Shown: positions 3,415-43,941 of the stretch, piece by piece | Numbering within the stretch: position 1 is the stretch's first letter | Layout: every line of letters begins with the position of its first letter | NCBI GenBank assembly: GCA_026770705.1 | Contig: JANJGN010000001.1 | Coordinates: forward strand, 38,378,001-38,442,000 | Origin: Isurus oxyrinchus | Lineage: Eukaryota | Length of the DNA stretch: 64,000 bases | Reading direction: 5' to 3' | Notes under the pieces: model-generated | Seen by the model: the letters and a program-made list of their open reading frames with translations, nothing else | Databases searched by the model: none | What the model was told of the DNA's origin: nothing | Position numbers and translations under genes: made by a program

Positions 3415-4800
3415 GATGGCAAAATTACTTGAGTTCATCCTCATGACTCTGCTGTCACACATGCATATATTCATGCCTATACTGGTAGGAGTGGCCCCCC
3501 AAAGTCCTTGTGAAGATGAAGACTAAACTTCACACTGAAACCACCCTCCATTGCACCATGCTAAATGGGATCAATTCAAAACAGGTCTTGCAGCTCAAAA
3601 CTGGGCATCCATGAGCAGCAGAAGTTTTTTCTATCACAATCTGTAACCTCATGGCTCAGCATATCCAGCACTACACCATTATCATTAAGCCAAGAGGCCA
3701 ATCCTGGTTCAATGAGTGTAGTAGAGTATGTCAAGAGCTAGACAAGGAATACCTAAAAATGAGCCACCAACCTGATGCAGCTGCAACACAGGACTGCTTT
3801 TATGCTATATTGCAGAAGCAGCATGCGAGAGACCTAAGCGATTCCACACTAACTGATCAGATCAAAGTTCTGCAGTCCTGTCAATGCATGGTTGTGGACA
3901 ATTAAACAACCAAAGGGAGGAGGAAGCTTCACAAACATCCTCATCCTCAATGATGGCAGAATCAGTGCAAAAGACAAGGCTAAAGTATTTGCAACAATCT
4001 TCAGCCAGATGTGCCAAGTGGATGGTCCATCTTGGCCTCCTCTGGAGGGCCCCAACATGGATGCTAGTCTTTAGCCAATTCGATTCAGTCCATGTGATAT
4101 CAAAAAACAGCTGAGCTCAATGGATAAGGCAAAGGCTCAGGGCAATGACAAAATCCTGACTGTAGCACGGAAGACTTGTGCTTCAGAACTAGCCATGCCC
4201 CTAGCCAAGCTGTTCCAGTACAGATGCAATGCAGGCATCTATATAATCATGTGAAAAGTTGCCCAGGTATCATGTCCTGTCTACATAAACAGGTTAAATC
4301 CAATCCGAACAATTACCGCCCTATCAGTTTATTCTCAATCATCGGCAAAGAGATGGATGGTGTCATCAACAATACAATCAAGTGGCACTTGCTCAGCAAA
4401 CACATGTTCACCTTGCTCAGTTTGGGTTCTGCCAGGGCCACTCGGCTCCAGACCTCATTACAGCCTTGGTCCAAACATGGACGAAACAGATGGATCCCAG
4501 AGATGAAGTGAGAGTGCCCTTGACATCAAGGCAGCATTTGACTAAGTGTAGCATCAAGGGGCCTTGGCAAAATTGAAGTCAATTTTAAAATTGAATTCAG
4601 GAAAACTCTCCAAAAGTTGGAGTCATACCAGCACAAAGGAAGGTGATTGTGGTTGCTGGAGGTCAATCATCTCAGCCAGAGAACATCATTGTAGGTGTTC
4701 CTCTGGGTAGCATCTTAGGTCCAACCATCTTCAGCTGCTTCGTCAAAGAGCTTCCTTCCATCATCAGACCAGAAGTGGAGATACTTACTGATGATTATGT
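3415..4800 (+). mobile_element. Family-B (CR1-group) LINE, degenerate endonuclease-end and RT fragment
   Basis: KSNPNNYRPISLFSIIGKEMDGVIN, QFGFCQGHSAPDLITALVQTWTK and GVPLGSILGPTIFSCF-like segments, spread over several frames. Confidence 0.85.
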
Positions 4801-5097: not shown

Positions 5098-7020
5098 AAG
5101 AAATAGGAGCATATAGCTCATTGAGCCTGCTCCGCCATTCAGTATGATCATGGCTGATCTTGGGCTTCACCTCCATTTCCCTGCCCACTCTCCAAACCCA
5201 TTAATCCTCTGAGAGACCAAAAATCTGTCTATCCCAGTCTTAAACATATTCAATGATGGAGCATCCACAACCATCTGGGACAGCGAATTCCAAAGATTCA
5301 CAACCCTTTGAATGAAGTAATTTCCCTTCATCTCAGTTATAAATGATCGGCCCCTTATCCTGAGACTGTACATCCGTGTTTTAGATTCTCCAGCCAGCAG
5401 AAACAATCTCTCAGCATCTGCTCTACAAGCCCCTTCAAAATCTCATACATTTCAGTGAGATCACCTCTCATTCTTCTAAGCTCTGGAGAAAATTGACCCA
5501 ATTTGCTCCGCTTCCCATCATAGGACAACCCCCTCATCACAGTTTGTGTACCACCTCCAATGCATGTATATCTTTTCTTAAATATGGAGATCAAAATTGC
5601 ACTCAGCACTCCAGATGTTATCTCACCAAAACCCTATACAAATCTAGCAAGACTTCTCTATTCCTATACTCCAATCTCCTTGCAATAAAGGCCAACATGC
5701 CATTTGTCTTCCTAATTGCTTGCTGTGCCTGCAAGTTAACTTTTTGTGTTCCTTCTTCAAGCACACCCAAGTTTTTTTGAACATCAACACTTACACAAGT
5801 TTCTCATCTTTAACAAAATAGTCTGTTTTTCCATTCTTTCGACCAAAGTGAATAACTTCACATTTCCCTACATTATAATCCATCTGCCATCTTGTTGCCC
5901 ACTCGCTTAACCTGTCAACTTCTCTTTGCAGCCTCTCTATGTCCTCTCCACAGCTTACCTTACCACCTAGCTTTGTATCATCAGCAAACTTAGATATGTT
6001 AATCTCTGTCCCTTCATCTAAGTCATTAATATATATTGTAAATAGGTGAGGTCCCAGCACTGACCCTTTTGGTACTGTAAGTTTTTGATAATAGTACAAA
6101 TTTTTATGGTTTTATGTTGGTCTGAAGTAATATCTATGGCTTCTTTTCAATCACTTATTAAATAGTTCAGTTTGAATTTCTGTTAGTGGAAAACTTTACA
6201 GTTAAGGCTGGGAATAGGAAGGCAGTTACTTGTGAGAAACTACACTTAATGAATTTTATGACTCTGAATGTGCAAGTAAGAGCTTTTATGTCAGCTTTGA
6301 AGAAATGGCTAAAAAGTAGCTTGAACTTAGGATGACGCCTTATCTTTAAACAAGACCATATATTGGTTTAATTGACTAGCCATATCTGTAGGGTAAAACA
6401 TCTGTATCACAGGAAAACCTTTCTTTTCTGACTTTGTAGTAGGACGTGTTATTAACATTTCTTTTTAATGGTTTTAGTATCCAAGGGACTTGGGTTAAAA
6501 TATGTGAATGTGTACAAATGTTTGGACTATTTCCAAGTAAAGGATGAGAAGTAGGGATAAAAGTTGGAAAATCAAAGTCTTCGTTGGCTCAGTTTTACCA
6601 TGGTTTCTGTGATATAATTCTTCTGAGACATGTTTCAATGTAATCGTCACTTCAGAGACAGATGAAAAAAAGGCATTGTCTGTGCTGGCAGCACTTGAAG
6701 AATCCTTTAGGACCTTGAGTGATAAGAAAGTTTCACATTGTTTTCATTGTATTTTGTTAAGTATATGTAAAATCTTGCTTAATAAATTCTACTTGATTCA
6801 TAAATACTAGTTATTGGTACCTTGTTAGGTCAGACACAACTGAGAACCCCATTGTTAGAAATTAAAATTAGGAGTTTAGAGATTTTAATTAAAAGGGTTT
6901 TATACCTCAAACCCCTAAACATATAATACTCCACTACTCACTACCCGCCAACTTGAAAAAGTCCCATTTATGCCCATTTTCTGCTCCCTAACTGTTAACT
7001 AATACTCTAGCCATGCTACT
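5098..7020 (-). mobile_element. CR1 (HER1-like) LINE 3' part, interrupted at 6077-6926
   Basis: ORF 5791-6099 gives [29 protein letters not shown]. The 3' tail is near 5098, and RT resumes at 6927-7020. A short sense-strand piece of the same family lies at 5018-5097. Confidence 0.88.
6077..6926 (+). mobile_element. Unclassified ~850-bp insertion, possible solo LTR
   Basis: Splits the CR1 RT (ggTACT|...|TACTccact) with a 4-bp direct repeat. Begins near TGTAAG, has AATAAA at 6781, and contains no ORF. Confidence 0.45.
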
Positions 7021-7023
7021 ATA

Positions 7024-7304
7024 TGTTGTGTGTGCCTGCATGCCATTGTAATGTAAAGGTGCTCGGCAGAGCAAGAGTTAACATGGGACTGGAGAATAGC
7101 ACCACCCATGGTATGACATATAGAGTCACATGGTAAAAGACCAGAGAACAATTTAGAAGGAACCAGCCTGCATGGGAGCGGCACCATGCATGGCAGTAAC
7201 TGGGATCTATACATAGATAAGGATTATCAATAAATAGTTCATGTTTAGACATACAAATCTCAAGATCTCAATAATGAGACACGAAATCAACCCATAACAC
7301 AACA
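7024..7304 (+). repeat. 5' LTR of element 1 (281 bp)
   Basis: TG...CA ends with an 8-bp terminal inverted repeat and an internal AATAAA. Its first ~100 bp recur at 11123-11222. Confidence 0.85.
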
Positions 7305-7989
7305 TGGTGATCAGCAGTGGCATGAAAGGTGGCATTCAAATGATGAACTCAGAACAGAATCCCAAGAAATGAAAAAATAAAAGTAGCTGAAGCCTGACCA
7401 GAGAGATGTGCACCTAGGAAGAAACATTGAAGAAACAGTTGAAGAAGCTTCCCTACAGAGTTGCAAGTTAAGGAATCCACCAGAGTGAGTGGTGGCCCAT
7501 TGTAATATCCTGAGTCACGCAGTGAGGAACCTGGTCAGGTCACAAGATATGTGAGAAAAATTACGAAAAAGAGACCCTGAGAGATACAGAGTGAAGGAAC
7601 CTAATCAGATCACGGGACAAGTGTGCAAAATTACAAAAATATCTGTACTTACATTGTTGAATACGTAGCAGTTCCAGGGGCTCAGCATCCAGAGGGCAGC
7701 TGAAAGAGAGCTGCAGAAGGTGCCTAGAGCCGGCACCATAACACGTATTGGATGTACTGCTCTGAAGTGAATTTTTTAAAATAAGAACCTGCAGAGTTTA
7801 AGTAAGAAGAATCACCCTGAAATTGGTTTTACAGCTCTGAGGAGCAAATTGCTACATTTTTAAAAGTTTTAAAAAAAGGAAATGGCCTATGATGATGAAG
7901 GAGCCTGCCAAACCTGAATCAGTGTGGGAAACTCACAAAGAGAAAACCTACAGCCTGAGGGAATAAAACAGATAGCCTTATAGATGCAG

Positions 7990-8330
7990 TGGCATTTAAA
8001 GGTGCAACCAGTACAAAAAGAAACAGCCAAGGACAGAAAATTAGGAGAACCAGACCCATTTTGGATAAGGAAACAGCTAAACCAGACCCAAGAGTGGGAG
8101 TCTTCGAGAAGGGGATTTTTTGTTTACAGGAGAATTACAGGGTTAAATAAGGAATCACAAGAAGTACAAATTGATGTGTTTTTATTCGTTTTTGTTTCAT
8201 TTGCAGTGAAGTACTCCACAGCCAACATATAGATCAATACTCGATTACATTTGGTGAGATATTGAAAGTCTTTGACGGATATTATAAACTCCAAGTTGTG
8301 GAGAGCGCAGAACCTAGAAGAAGGTCTAGC
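7990..8330 (+). pseudogene. Gypsy gag N-terminal remnant
   Basis: PDPF...QEWESSRRGFFVYRRITGLNKESQEVQIDVFLF resembles the P.PF..EW..W..RF..YR...L....E.QI..LL start of Gypsy gag. Confidence 0.55.
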
Positions 8331-8359
8331 ATACCACCCAACAAAGTGCCATGTGCAAC

Positions 8360-8455
8360 AAAAGACCCTCAGTGAGGGCAACAGAAGAACCTAGAGCAAG
8401 GGAAACAAAAGACCCCAGAGTGAGGGAGACATAAGACCCCAGAACGAGGGAGACA
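8360..8455 (+). repeat. 24-bp tandem repeat, 4 copies
   Basis: Units at 8360, 8384, 8408 and 8432 (consensus nAAGACCCCAGAGTGAGGGAGACA). Confidence 0.85.
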
Positions 8456-8499
8456 ACGTTCAAGTATACCACAGGATGGTTGCCGACCATGTCAGTGCA

Positions 8500-10330
8500 A
8501 TGAAATGCATGAACTGAAGTGTTAGTGCAGAAGAAAGAAATGGCTAAGAAGCAGCCAAAAGGATTAAAAATAGAGCATTTTGAAAATGCTGACACAGTAA
8601 ACAAACTACAACAGGAGATTGCAGTGCCTAGTGAGCAGATGGCTATGAATGAAGGAAAACTACCTGAGGTAACGCAAAAGAAGCAAAACATGCAAAAAGT
8701 AAATTAAGCTTTTCTACAGGAAAACATTCACATCAGAGCTGAACTGGAAGATTTGAAGTGCAAGATTCAAGCTGAGAAAATGCACGATAAACTGAAATCT
8801 TCAATGAACTAAGTTGTTCAAGATCTGAACAAACAGATTTCAATAACGACACAAAGGATGTAAATGCATTGGAGGCAGCTCAAAGGAGGTTTACTAGATA
8901 GATACCTGGAATGAGTGGGTTGTCTTATGAGGAAAGGTTGGACAGACTGGGCTTGTTTCCACTGGAGTTTAGGAAAGTGAGGAGTGATTTGATTGAAGTA
9001 TACAAGATCCTGAATGGCCTTGGTAAGGTGGATGTAGAAAGGATGTTTCCTCTTGTGGCTGAGTCCAGAACTAGGGGTTTCTATTTTAAAATTAGGGGTC
9101 ACCCTTTTAGGACAGAGATGAGGAGAAATTTTCTCTCTCAGACTTTGGAATTCTCTGCCTCAGAAGGTGGTGGAGGCAGGACCATTGAATATTTTTAAGG
9201 CAGAGGTAGATAGATTCTTGTTAGGCAAGGGAATCAAAGATTATCAGGGTTAGATGGGAATATGGAAATTGAAACACAAGAAGATCAGCCATGATCTTAT
9301 TGAATGGCTGAGCAGTCCCAAGGGGCCAAATGGCCGATTCTTGTTCCTATTTCTTATGTTCTAAAGTTATCAGGAGGAAATAATGACCCTCAATTACATT
9401 GTTGGCAAATCAAAGCAGGAGTTGGGAAAACTCAAACCAGATGTACAGCCAGGCAAATCAGCAGGTGGAAAGTCACACAAAGAAGTTGTGACCCTGAAAG
9501 ATTCCTTGAAGAATCAATATGTAGCCATGGAAAAACATGAGGAGCGAAAAAGGACATTGAATATTACTTCAGAAAAACCTGCATTGGAATTATCAGTTGC
9601 AACAAACAATACACTGAAGCCCAGCGTGAATTGGGAAGAGGTCAACAAGAAAATAAACAGTTGAAAGAACAGTTGATTGTCCATCAAGATCAAATGCAAA
9701 AGAAGTGCATAACCATTCAGCAACATGAAGAAATGAAGACTGTCTTAAACAGCAGCATGGAAGAACAGCAGAATAAACTCAAGGAGGCTCCACTGAATTG
9801 CAGGAAAACTCAAGATGAGCCAAGTGAGCTTTATAAAGAATAGAAAAGCCTGTTGAGAGACCTTCACGTGCTACAAGGATCCCTCAGGTCAAAGTTTGTT
9901 CCTCTGGAAAATTACAGGGAAGCAACATTAATTTAACGTCACTCTGAACAAACTGAAGGACAAGTTGTTAGAGAAGACTCAGTAATGTTTCATAGTCCAG
10001 GAGGAAGCCCAAAGCTACAAGAATAAGACTGAAGAGTTAAAGAACCAGCTGAATGAAAAAAGGAGGCATTGAAAGGAAAAACTGTAGAACTTTCCAAGTT
10101 GCGAGTGGATAATGAAGTCATGAGTAGCACAATTACAGAACTAAAACAAGTTAAGACTTCACCGGAGACAGACCTGGCCAACAGTGAAACCAAATTAAGG
10201 ACAAGAACAAAGTCCTGTCGCAGACAGAGAAAGAAAAGACAAAAGTGAGATTGGAAAATGTAAATCTGACACTGAAGCATAACAAACTAAAAAAAGAAAC
10301 AGCACTGGGTGTCTCAGATATACTGAGCAC
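8500..10330 (+). pseudogene. Captured UACA/RAI14/ANKRD24/ANKRD35-like coiled-coil sequence (degenerate; CR1 inserted at 8857-9362)
   Basis: DKLKSSMN*VVQDLNKQISITTQ|SYQEEIMTLNYIVGKSKQELGKLK; SLKNQYVAMEKHEERKRTLN; ENKQLKEQL..HQDQMQKKCITIQQHEEMK; LQGSLRSKFVPLENYRE. These are colinear with the UACA coiled coil as I recall it (e.g. NQYVPVKTHEEVKMTLN). Confidence 0.7.
8857..9362 (+). mobile_element. 5'-truncated CR1 LINE inserted in the element 1 cargo
   Basis: MSGLSYEERLDRLGLFPLEFRKVRSDLIEVYKIL. 3' tail TTCTTATGTTCT. AAAG direct repeat at 8853-8856 and 9363-9366. Confidence 0.9.
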
Positions 10331-10851
10331 CATTGAGCTGATTGAAAACATTCATAAGATTGTAAAATGATTTGAAAATAAAACAGTAAATGAATGTTTG
10401 GCTGAAATTGTGAAACAAGTGGAAATGAAGATTCCATTTGCAAAATGGCAACATCCAGCAAGAACATGCAGGACTCCATGGAAAAAGAGAATTTGAGTCT
10501 AAGCTAGGACTGAATGGAGTGCACAATCCCCTTGGAAGGAACGGGACAAACTCGCAATGTTGGAAAAAAGCAGACGGGTTGTTAACAAAGAGAAATGCAA
10601 CTCGAAGGAGCACTAAAAGCAAATCATATGGAGATAACCAAGTACCAGAAACACAGAGTACTACTATCATTCCTCCAAATGAGACAGACCGCGATGTGGA
10701 GGAACTGTAAAGCCTCATGGCTGTCTGAATTTATGAAGTCAGAGACTTGGCGTGGGGGAGAATGGATAACAAGTAAAGATTGTATTGTAAATAGCTATAC
10801 TCCTTTAGAAGGGAGGAAAGTTTTCCTTTGAGAAGAAAGGAGATGCTGTGT

Positions 10852-11067
10852 TTTTTAAATTCATTTTATGGGATGTGGGCATCGCTGGCTAGGCCAACAT
10901 TTATTGCCCATCCCTAGCTGCCCTTGAGAAGGTGGTGGTGAACTGCTTTCTTGAACTGCTGCAGTCCATTTGGTGTAGGTAAACACATAGTGCTGTTAGG
11001 GAGGGAGTTCCAGGATTTTGACAGTGACAGTGAAGGAACAGTGATATATTTCCAAGTCAGCACGGTG
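10852..11067 (-). mobile_element. Family-B LINE 3' end inserted at the start of the element 1 3' LTR
   Basis: TTTT..ATGGGATGTGGGC...ATTTATTGCCCATCCCTA.TGCCCTTGAGAAGGTGGTGGTG, the same 3' end as at 21380 and 54258. Confidence 0.9.
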
Positions 11068-11719
11068 AAAAAAAAACACAACATCCCCCTTTTTCTGAGA
11101 AGAAAACTTTCCTGCCTTCTAACGTAGTGTGGGCCTGCATACCATTGTCATGTAAAGGTGCTCAGCAGATCAGGGGTTAACATGGGACTGGAGATGAGCA
11201 CCACCCACAGTATGCAGAGTCAGCCACACTCATGCTGGCTGAGCTAAAAATTCTGCCCATAAGCTCAGGATAGATAGTAATTGCAAAAAAGAGCCCTGAG
11301 AAATTGTGAGAAAATAAGTGAAACAAATTAATAGATGAACAGGGATCGTTGGTTGCAGGAAAGGGCAGAGTGGATGCAGCTGCTCCAGAGCCATATTTTA
11401 TCAACATCCAGGCTTTGGCTTCATCTCCAGTTGATGTGGGCTTGGGTTGGTGTCAATCTGGGGGCCCAGAATTGCCCTACAAAGGAGTAATCTAAAAGCA
11501 GCCTTCGAGCATTTATTTTTCTACAAAATCACTTCTCCCAAAGAATAATATATTTTTTTTGTGCTTTCTTTTTAATTCTTTGAGTCACCCTTTAAAATGC
11601 TTTTGAAAATATAATATTAATATGGTTACAATTGTTTAAATCCAGTTGAAACCCACATTCTCTGCAGTATCCCAGGGTCAAGTACAGTAAGCTTGTCATA
11701 TCTGTCCCCCCTACGGTGT

Positions 11720-11779: not shown

Positions 11780-12462
11780 TACCACATGTCTGTCCTTGGC
11801 TTACTGCATTGTTCCAGTGAAGCCCAACGCAAACTGGAGGAACAACACCTCATCTTCCGACTAGGCACCTTACAGCCTTCCGGTCTGAATATTGAATTCA
11901 ATAACTTTAGGTCGTGAGCTCCCTCCCCCATCCCCACCCCCTTTCTGTTTCCCCCCTTTTTTCCCCCCCTTTTTTTTCCCTATAAATTTTATAGATTTTT
12001 CTTTTCCCACCTATTTCCATTATTTTTAAATATTTTAAAATCTTTTATGCTCCCCCCACCCCCACTAGAGCTGTACCTTGAGTGCCCTACCATCCATTCT
12101 TAATTAGCACATTCGTTTAGATAATATCACCAACTTTAACTTTAACACCTATGTGTTCTTTTGTACCATTGTTACTGACATCTATTGATGATCTGCTTCT
12201 ATCACTGCTTGTTTGTCTACACAAGCACCTCTGTCTCTCTCTCTCTCTCCTCCCCCCCCCCCCCCCCCCCCCACACATACACCTTAAACCAGCTTATATT
12301 TCAACTCTTTCCTGGACTCGAAATCAAGTTCTGTCGAAGGGTCATGAGGACTCGAAACGTCAACTCTTTTCTTCTCCGCCGATGCTGCCAGACCTGCTGA
12401 GTTTTTCCAGGTAATTCTGTTTTTGTTTTGGATTTCCAGCATCCGCAGTTTTCTTTGTTTTC
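11780..12462 (+). mobile_element. Penelope-like element 3' end (GIY-YIG endonuclease C-terminus + pLTR)
   Basis: HMSVLGLLHCSSEAQRKLEEQHLIFRLGTLQPSGLNIEFNNFR, then a pLTR ending GACCTGCTGAGTTTTTCCAG...ATTTCCAGCATCCGCAG. Confidence 0.88.
12327..12365 (+). ncRNA. Minimal type I hammerhead-like motif in the Penelope pLTR (variant core)
   Basis: AGTT-CTGTCGA-AGGGTC atgag GACTC-GAAA-C-GTC-AACT, with stem I AGTT/AACT. The core deviates from CUGANGA. Confidence 0.5.
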
Positions 12463-13311
12463 TACTGTTGTTCCATTAGGTAATCCAAACAATAGTGCTG
12501 GATGGGAGCAATTGCACTCCTTCATTTTTAGTTGTTGGAAACTTAATTTCCTTTTTAATACATAATTGGTGAACTGAGTAATGTAATTTACAATCTTCAC
12601 CAGTTTTGGTGGGCACATTGGTGTTAACGTAATTTGCCAGCCATGCAGGGTGGATGGTAAAGCCAAACAGCTAAGCAACCTATTTTTAAAAAAGAGAAAT
12701 CTCACTTAGAAACCGTCCCTCCAAATTTTTAGCTGTTGCACCCAGAATCACAGAGGTAATTGCACTTCAATAAGCTGCGAGCAGCTGACTGAAACTGCTC
12801 AAGACCCAGCATTGTCTGAAATCAATGCAGCCTTTTGGATAAGTAACTACTCATTGAACTGCACAAAATAACCAGCATGCGTAATGTGGTGTGGCCACAT
12901 AATTTGGCTTTGCAGTGCTGGTGGTTTTGGTGCTAAACCATTTGAGGTAAAAAATGGTGGGGTTGCCTATGTAAGGGTGGCCAAGCTGCTCCTATTGTTG
13001 GTAGAGTTGATCAGCAGACACTCCTTGGGTGGAAACATTAAGTTTATTTACAATGTACTCAGCAGCAACCACACGTGTGCTTTCAACTCCAACTCTATCT
13101 CTGCACTGACTGCTCAGGTAGCTCATACTACTCTCCTATTGGTTACTACAGATCACATGATCTTCCCTAACACGTATTATTCTTAAAGGTACATTACTCA
13201 CTAAATAAAACCATAATTACTACATTCCTCCCCATTCAACTTGGCTATACAGATTATATTTACAAGTACATATTTTTCAAGACCAAATAATATTTACACT
13301 GGATGAGGAGT

Positions 13312-14770
13312 TTACAATTTCAGTCTTTCAGGTGGTTTCCTGGTATGTGTGGAACGTCGCAGTTCCACAACTTCAGAATCTTTGTCAAGAACCTCCTTTT
13401 CTGGAGTTGCCTGAACATCAGGTGCTTCGGTGAGTACTTGTAGTTCTATATCCTCAACTCTTACTGGAACATCAGACTTGTCTGTCCTGGGTCGAGTATC
13501 CTCAACAGGAAATGCAGATCCAGTCATGATCACTGGTGGAACTAAATCTTGGTGATTTGTCTCTCCCTTTTTTAAATGGTCCACATGTTTACAGATGATC
13601 CAGCCTTACACCTCCACGTGGTAAGATAGAGATCCAGTCACTGCACTTATTTCACCTGGTAACCACTTTGGTCCTTCCCTGAAGTTTTTCATGTATGCCG
13701 GCTCTCCCATGGTAAATTTCCTCTGGCGACTATGCCAGTTGTGTCTAGTTTTCTGGCTTCCCTGACTCCTTTCCACCTTCCCCTCTAAATTCAGCATTAT
13801 TAAGCTCAATTTCATCCTGAGACGGCGTTTCAACAATAACTCCGCAGGTGTGACACCTGTTGTTGTTTGAGGGGTAGTCCTGTAATGAAAAAGAAAGCCT
13901 GCTAGCTTGGTTGCCAAGGAATTGCCAGTTAGCTTTTTCATGCCTTCCTTGAGCGTTTGAACTGCCCTTTCGACCAGTCCATTTGAGAAAGCATGGTACA
14001 GTGCAGTTTTTACATGAGTGATACCACTGAGGCTGATAAACCATTGAATCTCAGCACTTAGAAATGCTGTGCCGTTGGCGGAAACAACTACTTCTGGTAG
14101 TCAGGGAATAGCAAAACTTTGACGTAGTTTGTCAATTGACTTCACCTCATATACGTCCAACCATTTCAAATGGGCATCGACAATAAGCACAAACATTGTT
14201 CCCAGGAAAGGTCCAACAGAGTCAATGTGTAACTACACCCAGGGTCTACCTGGCCACTCCCATGGATGTAACAGAGCTGTCACTGGCAACTCTTGCAGTT
14301 GTTGAAATTGCATACAGCGCTTTGCTAAACTCTCTAATTCGCCATCCATCCCAGGCCACCATGGATAGCTGCGTGCTATGGTCTTCATTTGGGAAATTCC
14401 TGGATGGAGACTCTGTAGTTCAATCAAAAGTGGCTCCCTTTCCTTTGAAGGAACTATCACTTGTGCTCCCCACAATAAGATGCCATCCTGGCTATTTCAT
14501 TTCATCAGATACGGGCTCCTGTGACCAACCATACAGCACTTGTTCTCGCACTTGAGATAGGATTGGGTCCCGACTTATTCAATCTCTGATCTGTCAAGCA
14601 CGTACTGGCAAGGAATCTAAGGAATTTAACAGTGAAACAAGTTCCTGTGGAACTGAGACACACTCATCATTTTCTTGTGAAGGCAAACGACTAAGGTCAT
14701 CAGCATTTACGATTTGATTGCCAGGCCTATGTACGAAAGTGTATTCATATGCTGCCAGAATTAAAGCCCT
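13312..14770 (-). pseudogene. Gypsy RNase H C-terminus + integrase (frameshifted)
   Basis: RALILAAYEYTFVHRPG..NADDLSRLP; LHPGISQMKTIARSYPWWPGMDGE (Zn-binding region); FLFHYRTTPQTTTGVTPAELL; LRRSTHTRKPPERLKL*. Confidence 0.9.
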
Positions 14771-14897
14771 GTTAGTATCTCTGTATCTTCTTTCCACGTG
14801 ACCTTCTTCTTTCTAGCGCAGACTTTAATCTTGGCCATCTTTTTGACTTCACTATTGGCCAAACTTCACTCAGATGCAAGCTCCACTTCTCTGAGCT

Positions 14898-15255
14898 TTA
14901 TTTTTCATTCGTTCATGGGGTGAAGGCATTGCTGGCTAGGCCAGCATTTATTGCCCATTTGTTCAGAGGGCATTTTAAGAATCAACCGCATTGCTGTGGA
15001 TCTGGAGTTACATGTAGGCCAGACCAAGTAAGGACAGCAGATTTCCTTCCCTAAAAGGCATTAGTGAATCAAATGGGTTTTTACAACAAGTGGCAATGGT
15101 TTTGTGGTCACCATTAGGCTTTTAATTCCAGGTTTTTTATTGAATTCAAATTTCACCATCTGTCATGGTGGGATTTGAACCCAGGTCCCCAGATAACTAC
15201 CCTGAGTCTCTAGAATACCAGTCCAGTGACAATACCACTATGCACTGCCTCCCCC
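14898..15255 (-). mobile_element. tRNA-headed SINE made of the family-B LINE 5' end plus 3' tail
   Basis: A-box-like GTGCATAGTGG and B box GGTTCAAATCC. The body matches 53845-54113. The tail GGGCAATAAATGCTGGCCTAGCCAG matches family-B 3' ends. AGCT flanks both sides. Confidence 0.85.
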
Positions 15256-15425
15256 AGCTCAGTGGCTGAGTCTCCCAAAATTTAATTACCTGTCTGCTTC
15301 TTGGAAAATTCTACAGCTTTTGCTTCCAAAGCCTTTTTGACTTCATTTAGCTGATTCTTCAGTTCTTCTGCTCTTTTTTGTATTTGTTTGCTGCCTCCTG
15401 GAAAATAGAACATTGCTGTGTCTTC

Positions 15426-15581
15426 TGGATCTGCACCTAAAGTGCTGTAAGCTACAGGGCTATGGGCCGGATGCAGGAAGGTGGGATTAGAAAAGGCACC
15501 TGGGTGTCCTTGGGCTGACATGGACAAGATGGGCTGAATGGCCTCCTTCTGTGCTGTAACTTTTCTATGGTTCTATGGTTC
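15426..15581 (+). mobile_element. Short CR1-type 3' tail insertion
   Basis: GATGGGCTGAATGGCCTCCTTCTGTGCTGTAAC followed by a (TTCTATGG)2 tail. It interrupts the cargo. Confidence 0.8.
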
Positions 15582-15899
15582 TCTGCCAACTCATTCTTCA
15601 GCTTGTTTGGAGAAGTGCTGAATTCTTTCTGTTTCTCTTTATACTTTTCCAGAGGTACAAACTTTGACCTGAGGGAATCTTGCAGTCTGTGCTTGTCTTT
15701 TAACAAGTTCTGTTTTTCCCTGTGAATGTTGCTCACCTTGTCTCAATCTCTGTCATCAAGCAGGGTCTCTTTGAGTTTCTTCTGCTGTTCTTCCAGGTTT
15801 TCACTTAAGACATCCTGCATTTCTTCAGGTTGTTGAGTTCTTACACATTCCTTTTTCAAAACAGGAACGCTTCTAGCTTCCTTCTGGAATCTCAGTGGC

Positions 15900-16234
15900 C
15901 AATTAAGGTTGTTTTCCCTTAACCAATTTCACCCTAGAAGGCTTGGTCCTCTGCCTTTCAATACTAACACTGGTAGCTTTGCCAATTGGCTTCCATAATG
16001 GACAGTTACTCTGCTTATGCCTTTTACTTGAATGTCTTCACCCATATAGGTTTTTAGTTTGGCAGCAGCTTCTTCTAAATTTAATTCATGTTCGCCATTT
16101 TTCAGATATCTGAAGGTATGTTCCCCAATTACTGTAGTGGAAGCTCCCGTGTCCACTTCCATTCTAACAAGTTTGCTATTTACTTTCACTGTGACAAATA
16201 TTGGTTCTGTCTTTCCAACTTTCAGGTTAAACAA
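15900..16234 (-). pseudogene. Gypsy aspartic protease
   Basis: VRMEVDTGASTTVIGE ... GPSLLG*NWL, where the stop is probably a CGA>TGA change in LLGRxWL. Confidence 0.9.
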
Positions 16235-16339
16235 TGAGTAAGTGTCTAAATTTGTTGCTTCAGGCTCTTCTACATTGTAGATTTTATTGGGCTTCTTCTT
16301 TTGTTTACAAGCCTGCTTGAATCTTTCCTTAGTGTCTCA

Positions 16340-17080
16340 CTATATGTCCATTTCTATGACAATAGTAGCACTTGATTGTTTTAAACTGCCAATCGTTAAA
16401 AGACTGATTGCTTCTGCCTCTATTAAAATTATCCTTCCATTTTGCTGCTAAGTTATTTTTCTTTATTCTTCGGCTAGCAGGTTTCCCACTTCTCGGCAGA
16501 GTTTTACATTTTCACACTTTTTTGGTTGGGGTTTCCTGCCTGATGTGGAGGACGGTGCCATTTTGCCTTTGAATCTCTTACTGCACCTTCCATGGCCAGT
16601 GCTATCTCTAGCACCTTCTTGATATCCAGATTCACTTCAGAAAATAATCTTTTCTGAATAGTGTCTTCTTTCATGCCACAAACTAAACGATCTCTGAGCA
16701 TGTCATTTAGAGTTGTACTGAAATAACGATGTTCCATTAGCTGCTTTAAGTATGCCACGTAGCATGCAATTGTCTCACCCAGGGCTCTATTTCACAAATT
16801 AAACCTGAACATCTGCTTCGTGACTGAGGGCTTTGGTTGAAAAAGACCCTTTACAAGGTCCACCAGTTCACCAAAATACTTTGGAATCTGGGGCACTAGG
16901 TACCGTCAAACTTTGAATCAGACTGTAAATTTTGTTCCCAAAAGCGCTTAAGAGGATTGCTTTCCTCTTCTCTTCTCCCGTAATCTCGTCTGCTTGAAAA
17001 AAGAACATGAGGCATTCTATGTAATGAGGCCAATTGTCTATAGCTGGTTCAAAAGGATCAATTCTCCCAAAATGTGGCAT
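16340..17080 (-). pseudogene. Gypsy gag
   Basis: MPHFGRIDPFEPAIDNWPHYIECL..FF.A..I..EEKRKAILLS; LNDMLRDRLVCGMKEDTIQKRLFSE. Confidence 0.9.
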
Positions 17081-17889
17081 TTTGAGAGGGGATTATTTCC
17101 TCGATTCTAAAGGAGCTTGCTATTTACAATCACTGGGCGAGGTGCAGTGCCAATTTCTTTCTAACTTGATTTCTTGTGTCTAATCTTGTTTTATCCTCCT
17201 TATTGTAAGGTTGGCTAAGTTGCTACTATTGTTGATAGAGTTGATCAGCAGACACTTCTTGGGTGGAAACATTGAGTTTATTTACAATGTATGATTGTAC
17301 GTGTGCTTTCAAATCCAATTCGATCTCGACACTGATTGCTCAAGTAGCCCACATTACTCTCCTATTGGTTACTACAGATCATGTGATTTTCTCTAACAAG
17401 TATCATTCCTAAAGGTATATTACACACGAAATAAAACCAAAATTACTCCATTGCCACTCCCACCAACTTCTTCTGCGGTCTGCGCCGATTGACATGCTGT
17501 GTAGGACAATAGTGCAGGCTCCTTGTGCATATGTGGGAAGAATGCAGAGTGAATGGATTGTCAGTCAGTGCCTTGGTGGCCAATCTGACGTTTTCAACCC
17601 TGTTGTTTCTGTTAATTCCCTGGCTTAAACATGGTAATGTGAACATGATTCAGCTGCACAGGCCGTCACCACCAACACCACACCCCCTCCACCCCTTCCT
17701 CCAAGAGGCATTGCCCAACAATTTGCAAGTAAGGCACTTTTATCTACTTGCTTTTGCAAAGTTAGTGGAAATTCTATGTTATTGGAAGAGTTGTGAGAAG
17801 TTGTTGGGTCAGAAGAGAGTGGTGCTGGGAAATTAAGAAAGAGTTGTGTATTTTTGAAAGGCTACTGAGTTCACCACTTCTTTGCAGTC

Positions 17890-19149: not shown

Positions 19150-21210
19150 TGTCTGTCTTCCATGTGCCCCTACCTAGCCTAGTACTCCTACACAGTGCCA
19201 CCCTTGTGGCAACAGCTCAGCTGGTGGGAGACTGATGATTTTGAATGGGGGAAATACAGATGGCCTTGCAGGATGTTTACAAGCCTTGAGGGCCCAGCTT
19301 CAGACTGCATCAGCTTGTCACAGGCAGCAACCACCTGGGCTGGTTGAGTGACAAGTCAGGCAATAGCAAGGGTATTGGCTAAGTGGCAGTGATGGAGCAG
19401 AAATGCTGTCATGCTGAGAGAAGAGGGCAGATTTGTGCACCACGGAGTCATTGCCACTCCCTCTGCAATCCTAGTAATCTGCTGAACCACAGGTTGCAGG
19501 ACTGATGTGGGATTTTGCGTGTCCCTTTGAGCACTGATCTCTGCAACCATTATGCTGTAGTCTGAATTTACCTGACACCAAGCTGGCCTCATTCTGAGTT
19601 TCCACTGCAGATCTTGGATGCTGCATAGATTCTACTTGTGCTGCAATGGAAACTAAGACATCGGCCACATGCTGCAAAATGCCTGGGTCCTCAAGAGTTC
19701 TCATGGAGGTGGCCACCACTTTCACACGGAAAAGGATGGGCTTCAAGCTCTATGTAAGCCCTGTAGGACTTGGATTCCTTCATGTTCCTTTACAGTGACA
19801 AGCAGCTCTCTGGCAGGTCTGCCAATGCACCAAGTACTTCTATTTGCAGCCCATCAGCTTTTTTTTGAACACTGTCTTATCAAATTCCCATTTGAGTCTT
19901 CTGCAGCAGGACTTGTCCACAACCTTGCCCTCCAGTGACCTTGCATATGTACACTGCCCTTTCCTGGCTACAGCCCACACATGCCCAGTGACTCACCATG
20001 TGCAGATCCTGTCCATATACTACCCTTTAAGGTACACACAGTGCTAGTAACTGAGTGATGGCTGCAAGTGGATCATAAAGTGATGGAGTTTCTTCCTCCG
20101 AGGCCTGCTCTTCCTCTGAATCTTCATCTGCAGGTACCAGTGGCTGGCCAGGAGGTAGCTCTTGGTGATAAATTGGGAAATGTTGATGTACAAAGGGATC
20201 TGAAATCACTGAAAGCAAGCATGGAGGTGCAGCAAGCAGTTAAGAAGGCAAATGGTATGTTGGCCTTCATTGCAAGAGTACTTGAGTACAGGAGCAAGGC
20301 TGTCTTACTGCCGCTGTACAGAGCCTTAGTGAGACCACATCTGAAGCATTGTGTGCAGTTTTGGTCTCCTTACCTAATAAAAGGATATACTTGCCATTGA
20401 GGGAGTGCAGCAAGGTTTACCAGACTGATTCCTAAGATGGCGGAATTGTTGTATGAGTAGAGATTGGGTCGACTAGGCCTGTATTCACTGGAGTTTAGAA
20501 GAATGAGAAGAGATTTCATTGAAACATAAAAAATTCTGACAGGGATGGACAAACTGGATGCAAGGATGATATTTCCTCTGGCTGGGGGTTCTAGAACAAG
20601 GGGCCACAGTCTCAGGATATGGGGTAGGCCATTGAAGGCTGAGATGAGGAGAAACTTCTTCACTCAGAGGGTGGTGAACCTGTGGAATTCTCTACCACAG
20701 AAGGCTGTGGAGGCCAAGTCACTGAATATATTTAAGAAGGAAATATTCCTGGACTCTAAAGGCGTCAAGGGGTATGGGGAGAGAGTGGGAGTATGATGTC
20801 GAGATAGAGGATCAGCCATGATCATATTGAATGGCAAATCAGGCACAAAGGGCTGAATGACCTAATCCTGCTCCTATTTTGAATGTTTCTATAAATGCAG
20901 AAGGGGGGAGGTAGTGAAAGAGAAGAGGGTCTGGCACGCAAACAAGAGGTGCATGGTTATATCATTTGCAGCCAGCACTTCATACCAGATTCTAGAATGA
21001 GGGCAAAATGGGATTTGAGAAGCTGCATAAGGTAGGAACATACAGTTATTCTGGATGGTTCCGGTGCTGCCTCTTCCCACGACTCAGTGATGGCCATGCC
21101 AATAATGTGGAGCACTGTCTTCTCCAGGGGGATGAAGACATGCAGCTGTGCTGCTGCCCTGCTGGTTTGTTGCTGGTCTCTCCTATTCTGAGTCATCTTG
21201 TCCAGCAAGA
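19150..21210 (-). pseudogene. Harbinger Myb-like accessory gene remnant, convergent with the transposase
   Basis: QNRRDQQQTSRAAAQLHVFIPLEKTVLHIIG (exon-2 type) and an acidic DEDSEEEQASEEETPSL segment. Confidence 0.55.
20165..20892 (+). mobile_element. CR1 LINE 3' fragment
   Basis: VQQAVKKANGMLAFIARVLEYRSK..LYRALVRPHL..CVQFWSPY; RRNFFTQRVVNLWNSLPQKAVEA, followed by the 3' tail. Confidence 0.92.
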
Positions 21211-21379: not shown

Positions 21380-22558
21380 TTTTTTTTTATTATTAATTGT
21401 TCATGGGATGTGGGCTTTGCTGGCTGGGCCAGCATTTATTGTCCATCCCTAATTGCCCTTGAGAAGGTGGTGGTGAGCTGCCATCTTGAACCGCAGCAGT
21501 TCCTGTGGTGTAGGTATACCCACTGTGCTATTAGGGAGGGAGTTCCAGGATTTTGATCCAGTGACAGTGAAGGAACATTGATATATTTCCAAGTCAGGAT
21601 GGTGAGTGGCTTGGAGGGGAGCTTGCAGGTGGTGGTGTTCCCATCTATCTGCTGTGATTGTCCTTCTAGATAGTAGAGGTCGCAAGTTTGGAAGGTTCTG
21701 TCTAAGGAGACTTGGTGAGTTCCTGCAGTGCATCTTGTAGATGGTACACACTGCTGTTACAGTGCATCGGTGGTGGAGGGAGTGAATGTTTGTGGATGGG
21801 GTGTCAATCAAGCGGGCTGCCTTGTCCTTGATGGTGTCAAACTTCTTGGAACAGCACTCATCCAGCAAGTGGGGAGTATTCCATCACACTCCTGTCTTGT
21901 GACTTGTAGATGGTGGACCAGTTTGGGGATTCCTAGCCTCTGACCTGCTCTTGTAGCCACTGTATTTATTTGACTAGTCCAGTTCAGTCTCTGGTCAATG
22001 GTAATCCCCAGGATGTTCACAGTGGGAGATTCAGCAATGGTAATGCCATTGAATGTCAAGGGATGATGGTTAGATTCTCTCTTGTTGGAGATGGTCATTG
22101 CCTGACACTTATGTGGCGTGAATGTTACTTGCCACTTGTCAGCCCAAGTTGGATATTCTCCAGGTCCTGCTGCATTTGGACATGAACTGCCTTAGTATCT
22201 GAGGAGTCACAAATGGCACTGAGCATTGTGCAATCATCAGCGAACACCTTACTTCTGACCTTATGATGGAAGGAAGGTCATTGATGAAGCAGCTGAAGAT
22301 GGTTGGGCCTCGGATACTACCCTGAGGAACCCCTGCAGTGATGTCCTGAAACGGAGATGATTGACCTCCAATAACCACAGCCACCTTCTTTTGAGGTAGT
22401 TATGGCTCCAACCAGCAGAGAGTTTTCCCCTGATTCCCATTGACTCCAGTTTTGCTAGGGCTCCTTGATGCCACACTCAATCAAATGCTGCCTTGATGTC
22501 AAAGACAGTCACTCTCACCTCACCTCTGCAGTCCAGCTGTCTTGTCCATGTTTGAACC
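21380..22558 (-). mobile_element. Family-B LINE 3' fragment (RT + tail)
   Basis: WHQGALAKLESMGIRGK; AGVPQGSIRGPTIFSCFINDLPS; NILGITIDQRLNWTSQI; 3' tail at ~21380. Confidence 0.92.
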
Positions 22559-23734
22559 ATATGCATTAAGCACCATTTGGTGGTGCAATTGCAAGGATAT
22601 GACATCTGAAGATGCAGTCACCAACCTTGACCATAAGTAAGGTAATTGAACGTCTTCCAACACTGTGTCTAGGTCTTTGGGTCCAGACTCCTGGCATTGC
22701 AATGTAATAAAATGGTTTGCTCTAGTAAACACTGCATGCTACTGCTTGATGCCTCTTGTGCAGCAGATTGACTGCTGATGCTGATGTCCTCTGTGGCTCT
22801 AGTTTTAACTCAAATGCATTGGAACAAGCCGGAGATGTAAAAGTTCAGCTGAAGCAACTTTGATGTCCATTATGGCAGTGATGTGCCTGCAATGGAGCTT
22901 AGCCCTAGGCCAGATGCCGAATAAATCACAACTCTTTGACAGTCTCTCTTGTGATGGTGCAGTCTACAACAGGTAATCTGTCTCTGCCTGTGTATCCAGG
23001 TTTTGGGGTGACCATGAGTGCAGGCACTCTGTCCTGGTTTTAACTCAAATACCTGGATACCTTGAGCACAAATTTTACTATCTAACATTTAACGACTAAG
23101 TATAATAGCTGGATACGAGCGGAGAATGGCACTGACTTATTTTAGGAGGTGGAAAAATCTTTGTTGCATATAGAAAAATTGCCAATTTTATTAACTAAGT
23201 GGAAATCAGCTCTAAATTCAGAAATTTCTCAGAATACATAATAGGCAAGTCTGTGTACTATCTTGATGTTTTTGTAACTAAGTACATCCGAAAGGTGAAA
23301 CCATGGACTTAATGTCCTGGAACATTTTATTCCTTGATAATAAAGTCTTTCTTCTGGAGGTCAAAAGCTTTTCATTAACCAGAACAATCGTCTGATGCAG
23401 ATATAATGCATTATGATAACAAGTACTTACTTGAAAAAAGGAATACATTTATTCGCTATCTTACACAATAATTTACACTTATTTTCGGATAAAGGCATAC
23501 TTCATAGCATCTCATAAGGGGCTGTTGTGATTACCAAGCAGTGGACTCCAAGGCATGGTTGAAGAGATATATTTTAAAGAAACTAAAACAAGGAATTTTA
23601 GCAGAGAGTTCCAGAAGGCAGGGCTATAATAGCTGAACAGATCAATTTTGAATGACCAATGGAATATGCATTCGTCATATGTAAAAAGGCAATGTCTTAA
23701 TGAAAAAATGACACTCTCAAGCTGGCTGTTTGCC

Positions 23735-25746: not shown

Positions 25747-27632
25747 TAAGACCATAAGTCATAGGAGCAGAAATTAGCCCATTCGGTCCATCGAGTCTGC
25801 ACCGCCATTCAATCACGGCTGATAAGTTTCTCAACCCCATTCTCCTGCCTTCTCCCCGTAACCTTTGATCTCCTTAGCAATCACAAACCTATCTAACTCG
25901 GTCTTAAATACACTCAATGACCTGGCCTCCACAGCCTTCTGTGGCAATGAATTCCATAGATTCACCGCTCTCTGGCTAATGAAGTTTCTCCTCATCTCTG
26001 TTCTAAAAGTTCTTCCCTTTACTCTGAGGCTGTGCGCTCGGGTCCTAGTCTCTCCTACTAATAAAACATCTTCCCCACATCCACTCTATCCAGGCCTTTC
26101 AGTATTCTGTAGGTTTCAATCAGATCCCCCCTCATCCTTCTAAACTCCATCGAATATAGACCCAGAGTCCTCATATGTTCCTCATATGTTAAGCCTTTCA
26201 TTCCTGGGATCGTTCTTGTGAACTTCCTCTGGACCGTCTCCAGGGCCAGAACATCCTTCCTGAGATACGGGGCCCAACATTGCTCACAATATTCTACATG
26301 TGGTCTGACCAGAGCCTTATAAAGCCTCAGCAGCACATCCCTGCTTTTAGATTCAAGTCCTCTCAAAATAAATGCCAACAATGCATTTGCCTTCCTAACT
26401 ACCGACTCAACCTGCTAGTTAACCTTAAGAGAATCCTGGACTAGGACTCCCAAGTCCCTTTGCACTCCAGATTTCTGAATTCTCTCCCCATTTAGAAAAT
26501 AGTCTATGCCTCTATTCTTCCTACCAAAGTGCATGACCTCACACTACCCCACGTTGTATTCCATCTGCCTCTTCTTTGCCCATTCTCCTAACCTATCTTT
26601 GTATCATCTGCAAACTTAGCCAGGATGCCCTCAGTTCCTTCATCTAGATCATTAATGTATAAAGTGAGAAGTTGTGGTCCCAACACTGACCCCTGCAGAA
26701 CTCCACTAGTCACCGGCTGCCATCCTGAGAAGGACCCCTTATCCCCACTCTCTGCCTCCTGCCAGACAGCCAATCTTCTATCCATTCTAATACCTTGCCT
26801 CTAACACCATGGGCTCTTATCTTACTGAGCAGCCTCCTGTGCAGCACCTTGTCAAAGGCCTTCTGGAAGTCCAAGTAGATAAAAACCATTGGCTCTCCTT
26901 TGTCTAACCTACTTGTTACCTCCTCAAAGAATTCTAACAGATTTGTCAGGCATGACCTCCCCTTGATGAAACCATGCTGACTTTGCCCTATTTTACCATG
27001 CACTTCCAAGTATTCTGAAATCTCATCCTTAATAGTGGACTCTAAAATCTTACCAATGACCGAGGTCAGGCTAATTGGCCTGTAATTTCCCGTCTTTTGC
27101 CTCACTCCCTTCTTAAACTGGGGGGTTACATTAGTGATTTTCCAGTCCTCTGGGACCGTCCCTTACTCCAGTGATTCCTGAAAGATCGCCACTAACGCCT
27201 CCACTATCTCTTCAGCTATCTCCTTCAGAACTCTGGGGTGTAATCCATCTGGTCCAGTTGATTTATCTACCTTCAGACCTTTCAGTTTTCTTAGCACCTT
27301 CTCCTTGGTAATGGCCACCATACTCACCTCTGCCCCCCGACTCTCTTGAACTTTGGGGATGTTACTCGTGTCTTCCACCGTGAAGACTGACGCAAAGTAC
27401 CTATTCAGTTACTCCACCACTACTACTTCTCTGGTGTCATTTTCCAGCAGCCCAATGTCCGCTTTTGCCTCTCTCTTACCCTTTATATATCTCAAAAACT
27501 CTTGCGATCTTCTTTTATATTACTGGCTAGTTTACCCTCATATTTAATCTTCTCCCTCCTTATTTCTTTTTTAGTTGTCCTCTGTTGGTCTTTGTAGGCT
27601 TCCCAATCTGCTGGTTTCCCACTGCTCTTCTC
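25747..27632 (-). mobile_element. CR1 LINE ORF2 (RT) 3' ~1.9 kb, relatively young
   Basis: GPDGLHPRVLKE; GNYRPISLTSVIGKILE; QHGFIKGRSCLTNLLEFFE; YLDFQKAFDKV; KFADDTK; tail at 25747. Confidence 0.95.
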
Positions 27633-31744: not shown

Positions 31745-32974
31745 GAGAGGGATTCGCACTACAATATCTTCCCAACCTATTGTTCTGGTGATCCTGAATC
31801 TCCCACAAAATGGATTGGACATATGAAGAACACTCTACCTGAATTCCATTGTCTAAGTGCCAATTAATATCTGTTCCAGCTTTTGGTAATACTTATTTTT
31901 TATTTTGTTTCTCTATTACTAATCACTGAACTCCCTCTGAATGGAACAGGATTTTCTTCTTTGGTGTATGGCTATAATGCATTACTGAGCAGTGTGCACA
32001 GAGGAAAATCAGTTAGGAAAGGTCAAACGCCCATAACATAGTCTGCCAGATTTTTCATTCATTAAGTTATAACAACAACTTATATTGGCAATATAAATGG
32101 AAGGGAAACCAAGTGGCTCTGCTAAAGGTGTACAAATATTTTTGCACATTTTTTTCTGAATGTTCTTTGTCTTGATGCTGCTTTATACCCAAGTTCTAAA
32201 GAGGAAGACCTAGTGCTTGGCAGAGAGAAGGGCAGGAAACTGATCCAGCCAGTCACATGATTAGAGGCTCAGCTGACTAGGAATGCTGACTAAATTTAAA
32301 GGAATGTGGCCACTTAAAGATAAGGGGCTGATTATGGAGTAACCATTTTGTTAACCATTATAAAAGGTGTAGATATTTGAATACCAATGCACAATACATT
32401 AGTCCTTTGGTTAACAAATTTGTGAACAGCTTATAAGAACACAAGAAATAGGAGCAGGAATAGATTGTATGGACTGTTGAGCCTGCTCCAGGATTCACTT
32501 CGATCATGGCTGATCTTTGGCTTCAACTTCACTTTCCTGCCTGTTCCCCATATCCATTGATTCTCAAACAGACCAAAAACTATCTATCTCAGTCTTAATA
32601 TATTCAGCAATGGAACCATCCATAATTCTCTAGGATAGAGAATTCCAAAGGTTCACAATATTTTGAGTAAAGACATTTCTCCTCATCTCAGTAAATGATT
32701 GGCCCTTTATCCCAAATTTTATGTGTTCTAGGTCCCCCAGCCCAGAGAAACAACCTCTCAGTGTCTACCCTGTCAAGCCCTTTCAGAATCACGTATGTTT
32801 TAATGAGATTACCTCTCATCTTCTAAATGCCGGACAATATAGACCCAATTTACTCAGCATCTCATCATTGGAAAACATTTTATCCCAGGGACCAGTCTAG
32901 TGAACTTTCATTGTACTACGTCCAATTAAATATATCCTTCCTTAGTTATAGTGCTGGGTATGGGGCTGCAGAAG

Positions 32975-33410
32975 CTTACCAAAGCTCTTTAGCAGCACCT
33001 TCCAAACCCACAACCACTACCACCTAGAAGGACAAGGGCAGCACACACACAGGAACATCACAACCTGGACCAAAAACAGAAAATGCTGGAAAAATCCAGC
33101 AGGTCTGACAGCATCTGTGGAGAGAGAAACAGGGTTGATGTTTTGAGTCTGTATGACCCTTCTTCAGAGCTGGACATTCCCCTCCAAGCCAATCACCATC
33201 CTGACGGAAACATATCGCCGTTCCTACACTGTCGCTGAGTCAAAATCCTGGAACTTCCTTCCTAACAGCAATGTGGGTGTACCTACACCACATGGACTGC
33301 AGCAGTTCAAAAAGACAGCTCACCACCACCTAGAAAGGCTCTTAAGGATGGGCTGATAAATGCTGACTTAGCCAGCGATGCCCACATCCCATGAATGAAT
33401 AAAAAAATAA
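32975..33410 (+). mobile_element. Family-B LINE 3' end containing a Penelope pLTR piece (33071-33169, minus strand)
   Basis: SWNFLPNSNVGVPTPHGLQQFKKTAHHHL plus tail. The Penelope piece is flanked by CTGGAC. Confidence 0.85.
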
Positions 33411-43400: not shown

Positions 43401-43941
43401 AAAAATGGGAGGTGACACTCAGCTACCACGAGTCAAGGGTTTTCTCAGTCCCATGAGCCTCCTGTAGATCATGAGCAGCTAAGTACTTTGTGCAATCCTG
43501 GCTCTCAGGTGACACCTGGAAGAAGCAAAAGCATAGACTAAAAGAAGACATGTCTAGGCACCCGAGTGTTAGGAAAGCGTAAAGTGATGGTGCGCACTTA
43601 GAAATTTACTGTCATAAATAAATAACTGACAAAAGCACTGGCCTCGACTTTTGTTATTGATGGAGATTGGAGTCAGATAAAAAATGAAACATTAGTGTGG
43701 TACTAATGTCCTTGCCAAGGTGTTGGTGATTGTCACACTTGTGTAGGGGCCAAAAGGGCTGACATATTATCATGTGGTAGGACAGATAGTGGGTTGAGGG
43801 TATGTTCCTATATTTGAAAGTGGGCAGAAGGAAGTTGATGTGCTTCCACAAAAGAGAAGACTTCAGTGATGAGATGTGCTATGATGCCTCTTGCAACAAA
43901 TACTACCTGAGTATGCTTTCCTGTGGTGCTTATTCCCACCA

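Follow-up and report, generated by a model that had tools for sequence, protein, structure and literature searches.

The LTR element E2 (12968-17450, minus strand) is a long-dead element of the Ty3/Gypsy type that lacks reverse transcriptase (RT) and RNase H, and in their place stands a fragment derived from the host protein UACA. The same rearranged fragment recurs in a separate LTR-flanked element, E1, elsewhere in the window (the whole 64,000-nt stretch of DNA analysed here), and codon comparison of the two copies points to purifying selection on the encoded protein after capture. This selected, LTR-associated UACA derivative is more surprising than the fusion of the fragment to the protease frame, whose function is unproven. 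The preliminary description of the locus, which had reported RT and RNase H exchanged for a coiled coil in frame with the protease, had missed the UACA origin of the cargo, the sharing of this origin with the neighbouring E1, and two later insertions. We read E2 as a template-switch chimera produced by LTR-mediated retroposition, with the UACA-derived cargo as a passenger, and assign this reading a probability of about 0.58.

Overall structure of E2

The features of E2 and of its neighbour are collected in Table 1. The LTRs at both ends of E2 and the TTGCC duplication flanking each side, already noted in the preliminary description, were confirmed; the LTR pair is identical at 215 of 251 positions (86%; K2P 0.162), and both copies begin with TG and end with TA rather than CA. 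In the sequence that follows the 5' LTR, no TGG start and no clear primer-binding site were seen. Between the LTRs, the gag region matched a profile of Gypsy relatives with E-values of 1e-16 and 5e-36 (1e-36 in separate scoring). The protease half of our query was matched by 149 of the best 150 of 3,699 database matches, with 32-50% identity among the protease-region matches, while the cargo half was matched by one of these 150, the unnamed database protein P0214. Two LTRs with a target duplication, Gag, an aspartic protease (PR) and an integrase (IN) downstream of an RNase H (RH) tail were all found, and E2 resembles the Ty3/Gypsy elements (Metaviridae) in its LTRs, 5-bp duplication, Gag zinc knuckle and order of PR, RH tail and IN. 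Unlike them, it is without the RT and RNase H core that autonomy requires and cannot be placed by RT phylogeny; because RT is missing, E2 is regarded as derived from Ty3/Gypsy and not as an autonomous member. As to type, it belongs with the non-chromodomain Ty3/Gypsy elements and may be Mag-like/K02A2.6-like. Ten stops were counted over the 887 codons of its retroelement genes, from which it follows that this copy has long been dead. Its integrase also appears to have short deletions that relatives lack, and its second catalytic motif is altered (window positions 14500 and 14130).

Table 1. Coordinates of E2 in minus-strand order, and of the neighbouring element E1
Feature	Position	Strand	Evidence
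TTGCC target-site duplication, 5' side of E2	17451..17455	.	sequence
5' LTR, 250 bp	17201..17450	-	
gag, three frame pieces; zinc knuckle near 16370-16330	16329..17083	-	Gypsy-relative profile
Aspartic protease; D-T-G motif 16153-16145; one stop, 15929-15931	15899..16200	-	PF13975, E 1.4e-7
Probable retained PR-RT linker, ~13 codons; 5' junction at its end	15859..15898	-	V-L pair; E1 similarity; low pLDDT
Cargo piece A, UACA residues ~903-996 (Mustelus numbering), protease frame; stop 15743-15745	15583..15858	-	72% nt identity to E1 9695-9975
Insertion 1, 156 nt with AGAA duplication; part of another repeat	15427..15582	-	missing from E1
Cargo piece B, UACA-derived, spans ~145-residue deletion; frame break near 15371; stop near 15284	15256..15426	-	
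Insertion 2, SINE-like, AGCT duplication; 362 nt (15259-14898) with one AGCT copy included	14898..15255	-	window matches
Cargo piece C, element-specific tail common to E1 and P0214; stop near 14868	14790..14897	-	
3' junction zone	14770..14790	-	RNase H-like motif in other frame at 14786-14778
RNase H tail and RH-IN linker	14500..14770	-	Gypsy-relative comparison
Integrase, decayed, 4 stops in 395 codons	13312..14499	-	PF17921, E 1.1e-5; rve_3, E 0.019
Polypurine tract	13225..13233	-	sequence
3' LTR, 257 bp	12968..13224	-	
TTGCC target-site duplication, 3' side of E2	12963..12967	.	sequence
E1, separate LTR-flanked element; UACA-derived frame as in E2 but longer (8531-10194)	7025..11214	+	5 kb from E2

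Loss of RT and RNase H

The exchange of RT and RNase H proposed in the preliminary description was borne out by our profile, by the Pfam null result and by positive controls. The profile, built from 45 natural Gypsy relatives, matched E2 in columns 33-645 and 1096-1254, which together take in gag, protease, RNase H tail and the beginning of integrase. For columns 646-1095, where the RT and RNase H motifs lie, it had no match anywhere in the window at E<0.5. Pfam scanning of all six frames detected the protease and the integrase zinc finger but returned neither RVT_1, whose absence had been expected, nor RT_RNaseH at E<=0.05, and the Gypsy relatives P0200 and P0249, used as positive controls, score both. 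Because the same scan also missed the integrase core, it is weak alone, and our case for the absence of RT therefore relies on the 45-relative profile and on length rather than on Pfam. From the C-terminal motif of the protease to the last RNase H motif, P0200 and P0249 span ~450 codons, versus 1,170 nt in E2, a figure that includes 518 nt of later insertions; E2 has lost ~1.3 kb of RT/RNase H. A degenerate RT hidden in the interval was considered and rejected on the lack of any profile match at the RT/RNase H columns. Pol homology resumes at 14770-14767 and is followed by integrase, in agreement with the earlier placement of the cargo's end just before the last RNase H motif.

Composition of the cargo

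The interval presumed to be cargo measures 1,089 nt. A helical foreign stretch does stand in it in place of RT and RNase H, but it is not the one coil that had been supposed, as two later insertions account for 518 nt (48%); the true cargo is ~0.55 kb, or ~180 codons. Insertion 1 is 82% identical over 61 nt to window positions 43938-43998. Insertion 2 is 81% identical to 53846-54092, its tail recurs at four other places, and it may correspond to the shark V-SINE HE1 named in the accessible text of PMC3747384. Cargo piece C shares 69% nucleotide identity with 10131-10271 of E1, a value reached in 0 of 500 shuffles, and 10 of 22 residues with P0214.

Junctions and reading frame

The minus-strand reading LKGRGPSLLG*NWLREN...LRSKFVPLEKYKE lies in one frame, in which the protease frame of E2 runs into the helical stretch, with TGA stops at two places, 15929-15931 and 15743-15745. 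The claim of a single frame with no frameshift thus holds for this quoted reading but not beyond it, where the frame breaks near 15371 and probably again near 14820, and where further stops lie near 15284 (the third) and, when the sequence on either side of the SINE is included, near 14868 (the fourth). Decay of CpG sites, offered earlier for both TGA stops, is plausible for the one at the protease motif; for the other, which the E1 alignment covers with gaps, it finds no support. The ORFs 15929-16234 and 15452-15736 do share a frame as reported, but the last 43 codons of the ORF that ends at 15452 are insertion 1.

On the 5' side, the replaced interval had been drawn from 15935, which proved too far upstream: the commonest end point of protease homology is 15899, beyond which a Pol-like linker probably extends to about 15859. 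Counted from the terminal Trp, the V-L pair of E2 has an offset of 12, and in 52 relatives the offset is 12-24 (mode 14). Foreign sequence begins at 15858, where similarity to E1 starts; homology to E1 extending upstream of this point was rejected, 226 of 500 shuffles having scored as high. On the 3' side, the RNase H-like motif stands in a different frame, 10-20 nt ahead of the resumed Pol frame, and small gaps in the E2-E1 alignment fall near the junction, at 14822-14804. The original frame into integrase is unreadable from E2's single copy.

In an AlphaFold model of the read-through product, with X at the stops, the first part folds as a retroviral protease, the linker is of low confidence (low pLDDT at residues 136-169) and long helices follow (mean pLDDT 66, pTM 0.37). 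The model is uninformative on the packing of these parts and on cleavage. For an insert on the sense strand, the chance of an in-frame 5' junction is 1 in 3, and the frame of the E2 junction most likely reflects chance or mild selection for read-through, not an adapted protease-coil fusion. Selection of the predicted Gag-PR-coiled coil(-IN) product as a polyprotein finds no support here. No protein joining protease to cargo occurs among the best 150 of 3,699 matches, and the 3' frame cannot be read. No such fusion was seen among 107 UACA-region matches (773-2,463 residues) either, and both searches used protein libraries in which decayed shark repeats are poorly sampled. Three proteins whose matches run into the cargo half (P0211, P0200 and P0142) were rejected as fusions because they continue as ordinary linker or RT.

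UACA origin of the cargo and its relatives

Among 107 candidates, the sole significant match to the cargo was the UACA of the epaulette shark (E 1.7e-9). Against 12 UACAs of sharks and rays the cargo is 33-46% identical, against three from tetrapods 20-30%, which makes a galeomorph shark the very likely host. The homologous parts of the host protein are residues ~903-1023 and 1168-1205. Host UACA has ankyrin repeats and a long coiled coil, whereas the E2 cargo is without ankyrin repeats, carries a deletion and ends in a new tail. E2, E1 and P0214 all jump from UACA residue ~1023 to 1168, a deletion of ~145 residues, and continue into a tail unlike UACA; the skipped region is kept in 12 of 12 shark and ray UACAs. 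A sequence search of the PDB gave no match. We presume that the captured UACA region may lie within one large exon.

In a tree of 94 columns, built with the 12 named shark and ray and three tetrapod UACAs out of the 107 matches (the unnamed P0015 and a second Hypanus isoform were dropped), E2, E1 and P0214 grouped together with support of 100/99, and this clade fell inside the galeomorph UACAs (95/88). Approximately unbiased (AU) tests rejected pairing of the E2 cargo with the UACA of Mustelus plus Scyliorhinus, of Heterodontus and of Carcharodon (p-AU 0.0006, 0.0001 and 0.0007, respectively). The common deletion, the clade and these tests together reject direct capture of the E2 cargo from the host gene and therefore indicate one capture followed by spread; the cargo was apparently acquired second-hand, from another mobile element.

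The neighbouring E1 carries UACA residues ~650-1205 with deletions, plus an unassigned tail at 10200-10640. Its LTRs, one full copy at 7025-7303 and a 91-nt remnant at 11124-11214 (K2P 0.146), are unrelated to those of E2, and TGG stands directly after its LTR, as a primer site would have. No Gag or Pol was detected in E1 with Pfam, the Gypsy-relative profile or Atlas. Frames at 8030-8330 (+), which we had taken to resemble the N-terminus of Gag, were unsupported by the same three tests and were set aside. E1 was also rejected as the direct donor of the E2 cargo, given a cargo p-distance of 0.31 versus an LTR divergence of about 0.14, and by this comparison it is a relative of the donor, not the donor. 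It is probably the more interesting family of the two. A LINE-like 3' fragment at 8860-9362 (+), which resembles 5110-5537, 20413-20887, 25749-26258 and 32436-32692, splits its UACA frame. At 10805-11122, between the purine tract and the truncated 3' LTR of E1, an inverted repeat of 52 nt (85%) encloses a repeat fragment and is either a MITE or a local inversion.

P0214 is an open frame of 177 residues, 58% identical to the E2 cargo. Atlas searches returned nothing above 0.78 for the E1 5' frame and only generic coiled-coil clusters for P0214, both of low recognition value. A search for shorter proteins with Mustelus UACA 794-1030 yielded none among 3,455 candidates; it missed even P0214 and is thus uninformative. 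No literature linking UACA to an LTR element was found; the repeat libraries Repbase and Dfam lay outside this search, and the family may be catalogued there.

Selection on the UACA fragment

Across 144 in-frame codon pairs of the E1 and E2 cargo, Ka was 0.35 and Ks 0.69, a ratio of 0.51 (bootstrap 0.31-0.79), and 15 of 2,000 neutral, position-blind simulations gave a ratio as low. The value was 0.51 with all seven blocks and 0.46 without block 3; the blocks are gap-free in-frame stretches, a choice that may lower Ka slightly. Being pairwise, the ratio of 0.51 is not assignable to a branch, and the signal could sit wholly in the donor lineage. Decay since insertion, estimated from the LTRs, is ~0.08 per site for E2 and ~0.07 for E1, and because both copies decayed after insertion the earlier ratio would have been lower than 0.51, at roughly 0.4.

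Protein branch lengths were 0.52 for E2 versus 0.18 (E1) and 0.21, and the value for E1 is about what decay alone gives. The E2 branch is long though the LTR ages are alike, which would imply weaker constraint on the E2 side; strong constraint in the E1-type lineage, relaxed in E2, appears to be the simplest reading. Stops occur at 3 of the 183 cargo codons scored in E2 (15745, 15284 and 14868), against 10 in 887 codons of its retroelement genes, a density compatible both with an open frame at the time of insertion and with additional neutral drift (P 0.21-0.37).

Discussion

Our preferred reading places the origin of the cargo in an ancestor of galeomorph sharks, in which part of the UACA coiled coil was copied once, losing ~145 residues and gaining a new tail; at least three copies of this deleted derivative exist today (E2, E1 and P0214). 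After capture it was kept under purifying selection as a protein, as the E1-E2 pair shows, most likely in an E1-type LTR family. RNA bearing the derivative may have been co-packaged with RNA of an intact Ty3/Gypsy element, and RT would have jumped to another template two times, once where the PR-RT linker ends and once shortly before RNase H does, exchanging ~1.3 kb for ~0.55 kb. The chimera, with RT provided by its intact partner, would have integrated with the two LTRs and 5-bp duplication that are present today, after which the copy evidently decayed and gained its two insertions. The coil in E2 is in this account most likely a passenger. Several points weigh against the account. For microhomology at the junctions, the short overlap at 15858-15850 is no more than suggestive; P0214 comes without genomic context, and the mobility of E1 is deduced from one full LTR and a 91-nt remnant. 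The long E2 branch, moreover, could be the trace of prolonged replication as a chimeric family.

This last point leads to an alternative that we hold to be doubtful, in which E2 belongs to an established non-autonomous family whose Gag-PR-coil-(RH tail)-IN polyprotein spread through the RT of a helper. The protease would cut the retained linker and free a host-derived coil of ~200 residues inside the particle, and selection would have kept this coil as a scaffold or as a means of holding integrase in frame. The sense orientation, the in-frame 5' junction, a swap that spares the whole protease and linker, RH tail and IN, and a cargo stop density near that of the retroelement genes all agree with it; the E2 branch would carry ~0.3 substitutions per residue beyond post-insertion decay, and such chimeras can be recopied according to the accessible text of PMC5131818. 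However, the same fast branch speaks against strong constraint, the 3' frame gives no reading, and neither the best 150 of 3,699 nor the 107 UACA-region matches include a fusion, which counts against it, if weakly, as few decayed shark repeats are represented there. The earlier suggestion that E2 probably transposed in this form drew on its LTRs and target duplication, which fit a one-off chimera equally well. A broader version, about as unlikely, holds that shark LTR families domesticated the cytoskeletal/nuclear UACA coil for their own use and exchanged it among themselves, until in one of them the coil replaced RT and left a helper-dependent Gag-PR-coil-IN element. If this were true, the element's protease would free a host coil into the particle, where it could be a decoy, a scaffold or an aid to trafficking. 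Selection of a structural protein of the host as a processed Pol product was not encountered in the accessible parts of the literature examined.

The LTRs and target duplication are also silent on later internal events, and the interval did take two other insertions, which would suit an intact element that integrated first and lost RT/RNase H later at the DNA level, by break repair or conversion from a UACA-derived copy. We consider this improbable: the neighbour E1 is excluded as donor by the divergences given above, and a sense, in-frame swap with a loss of 1.3 kb better fits template switching as set out in the accessible text of PMC5131818. Equally little weight is given to the deleted derivative belonging to the host, as a gene duplicate or retrogene that host selection maintains, with pieces of its mRNA captured independently by two LTR families. 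Such a gene would account for the clade, the common deletion and a Ka/Ks below 1, and P0214, an open frame without context, could be its product, but no annotated shark protein with the deletion occurs among the 107 matches, and a single abundant repeat is likelier than one gene being captured twice within 5 kb.

Capture of host genes by template switching is known. As described in the accessible text of Tan et al. 2016 (PMC5131818), LTR-mediated retroposition in animals replaces internal ORFs between two LTRs with a foreign piece in sense orientation; sharks are not among the six taxa named there. E2 shows two features of such retrocopies: part of its internal ORF is replaced, not merely interrupted, and its insert comes, at second hand, from a cellular gene and lies in sense. 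Like those cases, it has a host-gene piece in place of part of an ORF, would have depended on RT in trans and may be recopied. Unlike those cases as far as they are described there, its cargo is a rearranged derivative that is shared with a different LTR element and was selected after capture, and it replaces RT/RNase H almost exactly and in the protease frame; where those cases have microsimilarity at the switch points, E2 offers a short overlap that is no more than suggestive. Maize Bs1 and HERV-K/FAM8A1, cited in the same source, are likewise defective LTR elements with host gene fragments, but in other hosts and with other cargo, and no protease-frame fusion is described for them in that text. 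In bdelloid rotifers, extra ORFs are exchanged among retroelement types (PMC5408684, accessible text), which resembles E2 in that a host-type ORF is passed between retroelements and not freshly captured; the rotifer ORF3, however, is enzymatic or env-like and is added downstream of an intact pol, whereas the E2 cargo replaces RT within pol. New here is a vertebrate case in which the captured piece was kept under purifying selection after its capture and occurs in two elements with unrelated LTRs, in one of them as an exact replacement of RT/RNase H. If surveys of further copies confirm it, this would be a testable case in which a transposon took a structural protein of its host into service, opposite to the direction usually seen, and the selection signal favours the E1-type donor over the E2 fusion as the target for follow-up.

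Other features of the window

Rfam gave no matches in the window. A decayed LINE-like RT region lies at 3500-4800 (+), part of which matches 22232-22559 and 55155-55300. At the start of the window, a 310-nt inverted repeat (94%, with 221 nt between its arms) and an 80-nt tandem array occupy 1-865 and 1561-1960. A short repeat family was found on both strands, at 12324-12487, 33062-33174, 50575-50713, 55307-55440, 56291-56400 and 62323-62514, and the last of these copies contains a near-perfect 76-nt hairpin at 62323-62483.
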